Source: a virus. From it: a stretch of DNA of 64,000 bases. A program made the translations under genes and the position numbers. The notes under the pieces are model-generated. The model saw only the letters and a program-made list of their open reading frames with translations, made no database searches and had not been told where the DNA came from. Shown here piece by piece: positions 35,857 to 37,863 of the stretch. The stretch is from positions 54,699 to 118,698 of the IMG/VR virus record IMGVR_UViG_3300045988_033017; one strand, given 5' to 3'. Position 1 is the first letter of the stretch. The number at the start of each line of letters is the position of its first letter.

Positions 35857-36789
35857 ATGGGAGCAGGTAGTTATTCTAGAATTGCTTATGATGTAGAGGC
35901 CGGCAGTAGGGGTTTATATACCTCCACTAGGGATGAACTCTTTAAGAGCCATGCCATTAATGCATGTAATACTGCTGCATCGCTTAACAACAATGTTAGG
36001 CAGTATAACACGCAGATAAGGCAAGAAATGGTTAACGTGGGTGTTCGTGAATCTCGTGATTCTAAAGAACATCCTTTCTCTACTCCGATAATCATTGCGC
36101 TAGACGTTACTGGTTCAATGATGGACACACCTTATGAAATGATTAGAGACCAATTCCCTAAGATTATGGACTCTCTCATTCAACTAGGTGTACGTGACCC
36201 ACAAATCATGTTTATGGCAGTTGGGGACCACGTTTATGACCGATATCCAATTCAAATTGGGCAGTTTGAGTCTGATACAGCTAAAATTCTTGACACTTTA
36301 CAATCGTTCGTGATTGAAGGTGGAGGAGGAGGTAATAGAGGCGAAAGCTATCTACTAGCTCATATTGTGGCAGGTTATCATACTGAAACTGATTCCTGGT
36401 TTGAAAGACACACTAAGGGATTCCTATTTACTATTGGAGATGAACCAAATCTCGATAAGGTAAAGGGGTGTTACTTAGAACGTGTTCTAGGATATCAAAA
36501 AGGTGCTAAAACCATTACTTGTCAAGAAGCTCTTGACAAAGCAAAGGAACAGTACCATGTATTCCACATTCACATTACTAATGCCAGTCATGGCTCAAGG
36601 GTTGCTGAATCTTGGAAGACTTTACTTGGACAGAATGTATTAACATGTGCATCTGGAGAAGTAGACAAGGTGATTGTCACCGCAATTAAAGAGAACTATG
36701 AGGAGCCTGCTGAAGGTTTAGCTCCTAGTGCTTCTGTTAGTCAAGAATGGCAAGATGTGCCGTCTGATAGTAATGACAAATTTTATTAA
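35857..36789 (+). CDS. vWA (von Willebrand factor A) domain protein
   Basis: 310 aa; MIDAS-type motif IIIALDVTGSMM about 80 residues from the N-terminus; immediately upstream of the PurA-like gene. Confidence 0.55.
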   Translation: MGAGSYSRIAYDVEAGSRGLYTSTRDELFKSHAINACNTAASLNNNVRQYNTQIRQEMVNVGVRESRDSKEHPFSTPIIIALDVTGSMMDTPYEMIRDQFPKIMDSLIQLGVRDPQIMFMAVGDHVYDRYPIQIGQFESDTAKILDTLQSFVIEGGGGGNRGESYLLAHIVAGYHTETDSWFERHTKGFLFTIGDEPNLDKVKGCYLERVLGYQKGAKTITCQEALDKAKEQYHVFHIHITNASHGSRVAESWKTLLGQNVLTCASGEVDKVIVTAIKENYEEPAEGLAPSASVSQEWQDVPSDSNDKFY

Positions 36790-36795
36790 ACTGAA

Positions 36796-37863
36796 ATGAT
36801 TAGTATTGTATTAGGAACATTCTTTGGAGACGAAGGTAAGGGACAGACAGTTCACAACTTATGTAACAAGTACATAGGTAAGCGAGAGTCTGTATTAGTA
36901 GTCAGGTTTAGTGGTGGACATCAAGTAGGACATACTGTAAAGCATGGAGACATGATGCACACCTTTAGTAACTTTGGCAGCGGAACCTTACTTGGAGTGC
37001 CGACGTATTGGTCCGAATACTGTACTGTAGACCCAATTACCTCTATGTTAGAGGGTGCAGACTTAGCTAAAATGGGAGTTCGTCCCATTGTTCAGTATCA
37101 CCCTCACTGCCAAGTTGTAATTCCCTTCGATGTCTATTCCCAAGTTAATAACGAAGAGAACTTACGACATGGTACTGTAGGTACAGGGTTTAAAGCTTGT
37201 TTGGACCGAGTTAAGGCAGGATACAGCTTAACAGTTGTAGATTGTATGAATCCTTACATACTACGTGAGAAATTAAATGCCATAGTGGATAACTATTACA
37301 ACATGTCTAGTAAATATCCCTCGATAGACCTAGACAACTGGTGTAGGTTAGCACATGCTTATTTCTTACATACAGGTGCGGTTAATGAAGATTGCTTGTT
37401 AAACTATGACAACCTAGTGTTTGAAGGTTCACAGGGAATATTGCTTGACCAAAGATTCGGCATAATGCCTTATTGCACTCCGTCTAATACAACTTCACAA
37501 AACGCTTACGAGCTGTTGCGGAAAGCAGGCATACGTAAAGAAATCCAAACTTGTTATGTAACTCGTCCTTATATAACAAGGCATGGTAACGGCCCATTTC
37601 CTTCTGGAATGTCTGTTAGGGATGTCGATGACCCTAATAATAAGTTCAACGATTTCCAGAAGACGCTTAGGGCTATTGATTTCGACAAAGACCTATTCGC
37701 ACACAGTGTACGCATTAACCGTTCATTTAAAGTTCCTTATAGGAATGAACGAACGGAGAAATTGTACGTATCACATTGGGATGAAGCATCTGACGCAGAG
37801 CAAGAAATGCTAGCGAATTTATGGATGTCAATACAACCCATGATATTCGATAAGTTAGTTTAG
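36796..37863 (+). CDS. adenylosuccinate synthetase family protein, short archaeal-type (PurA/PurZ-like)
   Basis: 355 aa; P-loop VLGTFFGDEGKGQTV and FSGGHQVGHTV match PurA GDEGKGK and GGHNAGHT; FEGSQGILLD...PSNTT matches FEGAQGTLLD...SSNTT; about 80 aa shorter than bacterial PurA, as in archaeal PurA and phage PurZ. Confidence 0.7.
   Translation: MISIVLGTFFGDEGKGQTVHNLCNKYIGKRESVLVVRFSGGHQVGHTVKHGDMMHTFSNFGSGTLLGVPTYWSEYCTVDPITSMLEGADLAKMGVRPIVQYHPHCQVVIPFDVYSQVNNEENLRHGTVGTGFKACLDRVKAGYSLTVVDCMNPYILREKLNAIVDNYYNMSSKYPSIDLDNWCRLAHAYFLHTGAVNEDCLLNYDNLVFEGSQGILLDQRFGIMPYCTPSNTTSQNAYELLRKAGIRKEIQTCYVTRPYITRHGNGPFPSGMSVRDVDDPNNKFNDFQKTLRAIDFDKDLFAHSVRINRSFKVPYRNERTEKLYVSHWDEASDAEQEMLANLWMSIQPMIFDKLV

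Follow-up and report, generated by a model that had tools for sequence, protein, structure and literature searches.

A divergent PurA-superfamily enzyme and its vWA partner in a predicted three-gene cassette common to large phages and bacteria

What kind of enzyme is encoded by a short adenylosuccinate synthetase-like gene of a virus, and why it lies beside a gene for a protein with a von Willebrand factor A (vWA) fold, are questions raised by a 64,000-nucleotide stretch of DNA, positions 54,699 to 118,698 of the IMG/VR virus record IMGVR_UViG_3300045988_033017, which is referred to here as the window. An earlier note on this DNA had described the 355 amino acid (aa) product as an archaeal-type synthetase of the PurA family and possibly as PurZ, the phage enzyme that makes precursors of DNA containing 2-aminoadenine (Z). 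Judged by its sequence, however, the protein belongs to a distinct clade of the PurA superfamily that is neither PurZ nor canonical PurA, and positions 35473-37863 are predicted to form a conserved mobile cassette of three genes, found both in large phages and in hundreds of bacterial species, which encodes a coiled-coil protein, a protein with a vWA/metal ion-dependent adhesion site (MIDAS) fold and the PurA-superfamily enzyme:

35473..35853, + strand, cassette gene 1: small predicted coiled-coil protein of 126 aa ('u111' family), assigned by profile search
35857..36789, + strand, cassette gene 2: vWA/MIDAS-fold protein of 310 aa, assigned by AlphaFold2 (AF2) modelling and Foldseek
36796..37863, + strand, cassette gene 3: PurA-superfamily enzyme of 355 aa, assigned by PF00709

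Membership of the superfamily is borne out by a match to the Pfam family PF00709 (Adenylsucc_synt) of 120.6 bits (E = 9.2e-35; gathering cut-off 27 bits), covering profile positions 1-277 of 416, and by the motifs FGDEGKG, GGHQVGHT and FEGSQGILLD, which the earlier note had also seen. The AF2 model of the enzyme (pLDDT 91.9) finds its best Foldseek match in Helicobacter pylori PurA (6zxq; E = 2.4e-20, 25% identity), and the catalytic core, consisting of G-D-E-G-K-G, G-H-T, E-G-x-Q-G-x-L-L-D and S-N-T-T, is identical to that of bacterial PurA. Bacterial PurA, as represented by the Escherichia coli and H. pylori enzymes, is therefore alike in superfamily, fold and catalytic core, and residues 1-280 of E. 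coli PurA align with the window enzyme continuously and without internal deletions. The protein is 77 residues shorter than the 432 aa E. coli enzyme, close to the difference of about 80 first estimated, but its shortness stems from an absent C-terminus and a four-residue deletion in one loop, and not from internal deletions such as shorten archaeal PurA and PurZ.

The distinction from PurZ depends above all on one residue of the P-loop. In E. coli PurA, whose numbering is used throughout, Asp13 is the catalytic base, His41 the acid and Gln224 a contact of the nucleotide base. Asp13 is conserved in 99% of PurA and is Ser in 100% of 147 phage PurZ and PurZ0 sequences (PMC12884076), and reversion of this Ser to Asp in PurZ reportedly abolishes substrate selectivity (bioRxiv 10.1101/2025.10.22.683976). 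Residues were compared by MAFFT alignment to E. coli PurA, the only canonical PurA sequence included, and to the PurZ of phages phiVC8 and S-2L, for 118 family members, 141 representatives of the wider clade and 79 bacterial members. The window enzyme reads G-D-E-G-K-G where phiVC8 and S-2L PurZ read G-S-T-G-K-G, and Asp13 is found in all 113 family members aligned there, all 141 wider representatives and all 79 bacterial members; the PurZ Ser is absent.

Profile models point the same way. Against the NCBIfam PurZ model NF038379, which has a cut-off of 300 bits, the window enzyme scores 22.6 bits, less than E. coli PurA itself (126.7), the PurZ of phiVC8 and S-2L reaching 397.2 and 349.8 bits, respectively. 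The likenesses to the PurZ/PurZ0 enzymes of phiVC8, S-2L and Gordonia phage Archimedes are membership of PF00709, a length that is 343-366 aa in those proteins, and a match to phrog_1211, a family labelled '2-aminooxy adenylosuccinate synthetase'. By contrast, Ser13, the T-T-x-T-x-x-x-R-R loop, the C-terminal G-F-G-P segment and the two internal deletions, of the kind found in PurZ and archaeal enzymes, are all lacking from the window protein, which is only 15-17% identical to PurZ in sequence alignments and 13-15% identical in Foldseek structural alignments. A sequence search of the PDB at E<=1e-3 returned cellular PurA alone and no PurZ, while in Foldseek PurZ0, the Pyrococcus horikoshii PurA and the PurZs appear at rank 23 and lower, with 13-18% identity. 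PurZ also clusters with DatZ, MazZ and DpoZ or with DutZ and DmtZ. A Pfam scan of all open reading frames (ORFs) of at least 60 aa in the window detected no DatZ (HD), MazG/MazZ, DUF550, dUTPase/DutZ or DNA polymerase (DpoZ/PolA), in agreement with the remark in the earlier note that no datZ or mazZ partner was evident, and no purB was found by the same scan; likewise, none of the PurZ-associated genes (DatZ, MazZ/DUF550, DutZ/DmtZ, DpoZ) lies within 10 kb on either side of seven related loci. Identity as PurZ was consequently rejected on the retained Asp13, the failed PurZ hidden Markov model (HMM), the missing deletions and a fold closest to that of bacterial PurA.

The archaeal-type assignment fares no better. 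The corresponding model NF003295 gives 61.8 bits against a cut-off of 368 and matches residues 199-313 only, phmmer alignment to the structures 2d7u and 5k7x is confined to 200-310, and P. horikoshii PurA (5K7X) ranks 26th in Foldseek, at 17% identity, the first places being taken by bacterial PurA. This identity was rejected on the failed model and the absent deletion pattern. Nor is the protein a canonical PurA: it scores far below the cut-offs of the bacterial equivalog models TIGR00184 (92.2 against 395.6 bits), NF002223 (100.6 against 402), NF010355 (79.3 against 445) and NF010357 (84.9 against 700), E. coli PurA reaching 697 and 688 bits with the first two. This last identity was rejected because these cut-offs are failed and because the aspartate loop, the 5'-phosphate pocket and the C-terminus are altered.

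The alterations fall on particular parts of the active site. In E. coli PurA the 5'-phosphate of inosine monophosphate (IMP) is contacted by N38, T129, T239 and, from the second subunit, R143; guanine is recognised by K331, D333 and S414, with D333 specifying the base; and L-aspartate is held by a loop bearing T300, T301, R303 and R305. R303 touches both IMP O2' and aspartate (PMC8342488). The residues for phosphotransfer and IMP activation, D13, K16, G40, H41 and Q224, are present in the window enzyme and essentially invariant in the clade. T239 is kept too, as the only one of the four 5'-phosphate contacts: among the 118 family members, N38 is replaced by Gln in 116, T129 by Val in 114 (by Val or Cys across the clade) and R143 by Gly in 111. 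V273 has become His in 117/118 family members, 141/141 wider representatives and 79/79 bacterial members. The aspartate loop, GATTGRRRR in bacterial PurA and F-G-A-T300-T301-G-R303-R-R305-R with its preceding Phe and numbering, is replaced in all 118 family members by a version four residues shorter, [F/W/Y]-Q-[K/G]-x-[F/L/M]-[R/K], or in simpler form [F/W/Y]-Q-x-x-[F/L]-R; G302-R305 are deleted in every one of these, the loop Gln is present in 139/141 wider representatives and the bacterial members have the same motif. In the window enzyme the loop reads N-D-F-Q-K-T-L-R, without the canonical T300, T301, R303 and R305, and is followed by a single conserved Arg (R292). At the guanine site, D333 is kept in the window enzyme, in 133/141 wider representatives and in 79/79 bacterial members, whereas K331 is His in the window enzyme and Cys in most of the clade, and the segment bearing S414 is missing along with the rest of the C-terminal ~90 residues that bacterial PurA possesses. 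The bacterial members are uniform in this signature, with D13, Q38, H41, Q224, H273, C331 and D333 each found in 79/79. On these residues, the enzyme keeps the half-site that activates a 6-oxopurine lacking a 2-amino group, with the loop for the second substrate rebuilt and the 5'-phosphate pocket altered.

The clade defined in this way, set apart by the cut-offs of curated HMMs, by its signature residues and by its partner genes, is a large one. A word-indexed search returned 5,220 homologues of the 355 aa protein, the top 120 being 345-390 aa long and many lying on contigs of 145-400 kb, and an exhaustive phmmer search of 1.84 billion representatives clustered at 50% identity gave 6,572 matches at E<=1e-3, of which 1,340 reached E<=1e-30. 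GenBank phages with members of the clade, about 32% identical to the window enzyme, are the Bxz1-like cluster C mycobacteriophages (202 records) and phages of Rhizobium (10) and Vibrio (6; ~191-195 kb). When every GTDB species was represented by one genome, 441 cellular loci were identified, with 35-41% identity to the window enzyme, mostly in Bacteroidota chromosomes (for instance Flavobacterium, Dyadobacter, Chryseobacterium, Saprospiraceae and a Prevotella metagenome-assembled genome, MAG), further carriers being some Gammaproteobacteria and one Omnitrophota MAG. With more than 1,300 clusters at 50% identity and 441 loci in bacterial species, this would constitute a large third branch of the superfamily beside PurA and PurZ.

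Many of these genes are already present in databases, under annotation that is name-only and partly wrong. The proteins annotated as 'PurA-like adenylosuccinate synthetase' in Mycobacterium phages Bxz1 (gp250) and MoMoMixon (gp259), Vibrio phages phiKT1024 and Va1 and Rhizobium phage RHph_Y65 have the signature of the clade, consisting of D13, Q38, H273 and a W/F-Q-G-x-F/M-R/K loop; the mycobacteriophage protein, at 442 aa, keeps a C-terminal extension that the window enzyme does not. RefSeq (e.g. NC_023733 gp259) and PHROG 1211 nevertheless label Asp13-retaining mycobacteriophage and Vibrio phage proteins '2-aminooxy adenylosuccinate synthetase'. With the PurZ model, whose cut-off is 300 bits, MoMoMixon gp259 reaches only 54 bits and the phiKT1024 protein only 45, so that the clade has probably been over-annotated, under a label that has spread to hundreds of phage genes, including those of the cluster C mycobacteriophages, and is corrected here. 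Since Asp13 is kept and the PurZ model fails, genes of this clade would be unfit for inferring Z-genomes. The literature searched contained no functional study of the clade and no description of a pairing of vWA and PurA-like proteins.

The gene for the 310 aa protein ends 6 nt before the enzyme gene begins, and its product has no Pfam match, no Pfam VWA model being reached at E<=0.01. It matches phrog_2971 (E = 1e-41), and its AF2 model (pLDDT 86.5) has Foldseek matches in the PDB to the A3 domain of vWF and to I-like domains of integrin beta (E ~1e-5, probability 1.0, target TM-score ~0.6). A vWA domain is marked by a Rossmann-like fold with the MIDAS motif D-x-S-x-S ... T ... D; given these matches and the MIDAS-like motifs D-V-T-G-S and T-I-G-D-E, the description as vWA in the earlier note is correct. 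None of its 7,032 homologues has a Pfam domain. Conserved in the family are D83-x-T85-x-S87, E154-G-G-G-G-G, G194-D195-E196 and an N-terminal M-G-x-x-x-[Y/W], the initial Met-Gly occurring in 74/76 homologues from bacteria and 101/102 from metagenomes, which makes the protein far more constrained than a generic interaction domain.

Of 80 bacterial loci, 79 have a vWA gene immediately before the PurA-like gene, the exception having only ~240 bp of contig upstream, and a profile search found a homologue upstream, adjacent or one small ORF apart, in seven of eight independent phage and metagenome contexts. Profile matches include those in Vibrio phage phiKT1024 (UOK16853; E = 5e-68) and MoMoMixon (gp257; E = 1e-47), and EVB97_018 is the upstream vWA gene of RHph_Y65. 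Likewise, for 16 of 120 cluster representatives of the PurA-like protein the longest contig also carries a vWA representative, contigs of only 1.9-10 kb included, and GenBank phages have the two genes in nearly equal numbers (vWA against PurA-like: 201 and 202 in Mycobacterium, 10 and 10 in Rhizobium, 6 and 6 in Vibrio phages), whereas the PurZ-type or cellular-type matches in phages of Listeria, Salmonella, Acinetobacter and Staphylococcus have no vWA partner. The vWA protein is hence a conserved, co-inherited partner of the enzyme, one that bacterial PurA does not have, rather than the mere neighbour as which it had at first been treated.

Some individual copies of the vWA gene are irregular. 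On a 399-kb contig (locus L007, 7891-9993) it is split into ORFs of 501 and 161 aa, and in a 99%-identical contig (L004, 97-1029) it is broken by an in-frame stop codon; suppression of the latter by a tRNA with anticodon CTA, encoded in the window, was rejected, as the stop is TAA and not TAG. In some cluster C mycobacteriophages (e.g. NC_054722, phage Sauce) an HNH endonuclease is annotated under the vWA match, which covers 42% of the query.

A third conserved gene had escaped the earlier note. Directly upstream of the vWA gene, 52 of the 80 bacterial loci have an ORF of 111-131 aa, and the u111 profile built from these 52 bacterial ORFs matches the 126 aa ORF of the window (E = 4.6e-8), its orthologue in a 58%-identical relative (L005; E = 2.1e-10) and a 154 aa ORF in L007 (E = 3.9e-6), with position and strand conserved. 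The 126 aa protein has no match in Pfam, PHROG or PADLOC, and none of the three cassette proteins matches a PADLOC model.

In Dyadobacter, Saprospiraceae and some phages, the coiled-coil protein is replaced upstream of the vWA gene by a ~300 aa family ('u317'; e.g. L012 7950-8834 and L024 2153-3058). This family is homologous to MoMoMixon (L002) gp256, annotated as a Ser/Thr kinase (E = 6e-21); its representative at L017 7884-8837 has no Pfam match, and that at L024 2153-3058 has no PADLOC match.

The surroundings of the cassette in some lineages involve nicotinamide adenine dinucleotide (NAD) and ADP-ribose. In Flavobacteriia the cassette lies, on the same strand, within an operon that encodes NrtR (a Nudix regulator of NAD metabolism that senses ADP-ribose), a phosphoribosyl pyrophosphate synthetase-like (Prs-like) protein, microbial PARG, NADAR, a Macro-ADP-ribosylglycohydrolase fusion, Tpt1/KptA and an ADP-ribosylglycohydrolase (ARH), to which DUF4291, Macro or calcineurin-like phosphoesterase genes are sometimes added; in Cellulophaga, for example, the order is NrtR, Prs-like, u111, vWA, PurA-like and NamPT. 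Vibrio phage phiKT1024 has a NADAR gene ~1.2 kb upstream of its locus, and in RHph_Y65 phosphoribosyltransferase-like and nicotinamide mononucleotide adenylyltransferase (NMNAT)/NUDIX genes lie 3-5 kb upstream. This recurrence in NrtR-controlled operons and near phage NAD genes connects the cassette to the field of NAD+-centred immunity and counter-immunity. A related arrangement has been predicted by Iyer et al. 2022 (PMC9503650) in ARG-centred, NrtR/WYL-regulated systems that would counter viral ADP-ribosylation and in which a vWA protein figures as a 'peptide-binding chaperone': their vWA proteins and Nudix-HTH regulators may be compared with the NrtR and vWA of the flavobacterial operons, but they come from actinobacteria, planctomycetes and proteobacteria, no PurA-like enzyme is mentioned among them, and genes for ARG, Macro, NADAR or Nudix proteins are absent from the window. 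Similarly, the papers on NARP1, NARP2 and NARP3 mention no PurA-like or vWA components, Prs-like and NamPT genes beside the cassette are confined to Flavobacteriia, and no genes of these pathways (Adps + Namat, NamPT + NMNAT, PnuC + NadR-like) were found in the window.

What the enzyme does is best approached from the half of the active site that has changed. The reading towards which we lean, without great confidence, is that of a GTP-dependent ligase of PurA type whose second substrate has changed and which acts together with the vWA protein in metabolism or conflict related to NAD and ADP-ribose. The enzyme would still spend GTP on phosphorylating a hypoxanthine-type nucleotide at its 6-oxo group, and would make no Z-DNA precursors; its second half-reaction would use a different or differently presented amine, a nucleotide with a larger 5' substituent, or both; and the vWA protein may take part as a subunit, as a presenter of the substrate or as the acceptor itself. 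On the gene context, the cassette would serve NAD+/ADP-ribose-related nucleotide metabolism, or a phage-host conflict over it, rather than bulk AMP synthesis. A new reaction is made plausible by the rebuilt second-substrate site in combination with the obligate vWA partner. A bolder proposal, which we think distinctly unlikely, is a new PurA-type ligation in which the amine is not Asp: the nucleotide would be joined to the vWA protein, through the alpha-amine of its almost universally conserved N-terminal Gly, or to some other amine. This nucleotide would be an O6-phosphorylated inosine-type compound, possibly inosine diphosphate ribose or a deamino-NAD-like dinucleotide, both considered because the 5'-phosphate pocket is remodelled, and the product an N6-linked protein-nucleotide conjugate or a new nucleotide, deployed in a conflict between phage and host over NAD+ and ADP-ribose.

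Several observations weigh against a ligase of changed specificity linked to NAD. R292 could stand in for R303 or R305, so that use of aspartate remains conceivable, and the matching of residues around R143 and within the loop is sensitive to where MAFFT places its gaps. Only in Flavobacteriia is the association with NAD and ADP-ribose a strong one, two phage lineages having it in a looser form; flanks in Saprospiraceae, Dyadobacter, Olivibacter, Gammaproteobacteria and the Prevotella MAG are unrelated housekeeping genes (TonB receptors, tricorn protease, GGDEF, aminotransferase), and the Pfam scan of the 64-kb window found no NAD-related domain. Because the flanks are unrelated in several lineages, the cassette is better seen as a self-contained mobile unit, with the link to NAD and ADP-ribose limited to certain lineages.

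Alternatively, the protein could be a divergent but functional adenylosuccinate synthetase, converting IMP, Asp and GTP to adenylosuccinate as an auxiliary metabolic gene that raises the supply of AMP, ATP and dATP, or re-aminating IMP after attack by a deaminase-type defence, with the host PurB completing the pathway and the vWA protein merely regulating or scaffolding. Retention of D13, K16, G40, H41, Q224 and T239, a fold nearest to bacterial PurA and the Arg after the rebuilt loop all suit this explanation, as does the frequency of nucleotide-metabolism genes in large phages, such as the anaerobic ribonucleotide reductase that adjoins the phiKT1024 locus. We nonetheless regard it as rather unlikely: the T300/T301/R303/R305 loop, which bacterial PurA, archaeal PurA and PurZ, all users of aspartate, have in common, is replaced throughout the clade, all PurA equivalog models are failed by about 300 bits or more, cassette-bearing bacteria would be expected to have a separate housekeeping purA, and both the strict co-inheritance of the vWA gene and the lack of purB in the window are left unaccounted for. 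The suggestion in the earlier note of a purine-salvage auxiliary gene survives in the same weakened form, the rebuilt loop, the absent C-terminus and the obligate vWA partner all telling against it.

Loss of the aspartate loop and C-terminal segment could also mean that ligase chemistry has disappeared altogether, leaving a SIMIBI-type GTPase-like nucleotide-binding switch or sensor that works with the vWA and coiled-coil proteins to sense or sequester a purine or ADP-ribose-derived molecule during phage-host conflict. The obligate partnership with MIDAS and coiled-coil proteins, a mobile cassette with variable flanks, as is typical of conflict systems, and the association with operons of the ADP-ribose-sensing NrtR would fit such a role; yet Asp13, His41 and Gln224, needless for mere binding, are invariant in ~340 diverse members and no cassette protein matches a PADLOC defence model, making this improbable. 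Hardly credible, finally, is a PurZ-type enzyme that converts dGMP, Asp and ATP to N6-succino-2-amino-dAMP for a Z-substituted phage DNA. Its PurZ-like length and the '2-aminooxy adenylosuccinate synthetase' label of phrog_1211 and many RefSeq records speak for it, but are set against Asp13, the 22.6 bits obtained with the PurZ model, the absent PurZ deletions, 13-17% identity to PurZ, the ranking of PurZ structures below ~30 PurA structures in Foldseek, the lack of DatZ, MazZ, DUF550, DutZ and PolA in 64 kb and the occurrence of the same clade in hundreds of bacterial chromosomes. The cassette is a testable candidate, with Flavobacterium, the Mycobacterium smegmatis phage Bxz1 and Vibrio phage Va1 as cultured carriers.

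The window around the cassette is phage-like, with a G+C content of ~37% and nearly all genes on one strand, and also encodes a tail-lysin-type glucosaminidase, a DnaB-type helicase and an SF2 helicase. Megablast of positions 35000-40000 against GenBank phages gave no match, and the genome is therefore likely to be without a close cultured relative. As the earlier note had observed, a gene for an AAA+ ATPase follows about 0.5 kb downstream:

38415-39872, 0.55 kb downstream of the 355 aa gene: classical AAA+ ATPase of 485 aa (PF00004, E = 1e-13)

This protein is weakly similar both to proteasome-activating nucleotidases and Cdc48 and to the defence ATPases IetA/IteA (PADLOC E = 4.5e-8; NCBIfam IteA E = 7e-4). 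A role as a MoxR-like partner of the vWA protein was rejected: the ATPase is of the classical type, and its gene accompanies the cassette in the 99%-identical contig alone and lies near no other copy of it.

The cassette lies between genes for tRNA-Thr and tRNA-Gln, within a region of 29 tRNA genes on the + strand that are scattered among small ORFs from 18498 to 52174 (e.g. 25927-25999). The relative L005 also has 29 tRNAs, in an order partly common with that of the window. A functional link between tRNAs and cassette was rejected, since tRNAs are found near the cassette only in the lineage of the window, represented by L005, and not in six other contexts. The tRNA with anticodon CTA, labelled 'Pyl' by ARAGORN, is an amber suppressor. 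Among 83 window ORFs of at least 80 aa, the stop codons are TAA in 47, TGA in 24 and TAG in 12, and, TAG still terminating these 12, there is no obvious genome-wide recoding.

Other genes of the window include three paralogues of 283-312 aa (40837-41688, 46428-47294 and 49311-50249) with ~26% identity from end to end (BLASTP E = 4e-19 and 1e-15) and a common C-terminal motif, ...HS(M/K)WG(E/V)E(A/S)xD..F(D/E), without Pfam or PHROG matches. At 2410-6168, a protein of 1,252 aa has a mannosyl-glycoprotein endo-beta-N-acetylglucosaminidase domain (E = 2e-9) and a weak 'Kinase-PolyVal' match under the cut-off (E = 5e-4), and may be a polyvalent or virion-associated lysin. A 65 aa match to the catalytic chain of ferredoxin-thioredoxin reductase lies at 6896-7093, and a ferritin-like protein is encoded at 55441-56082. 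The 653 aa product of 31031-32992 is an SPFH/Band-7 protein with a very long coiled-coil tail rich in Ala, Glu and Lys; Band_7 and TerD genes are found near the cassette in L005 and L012 too.

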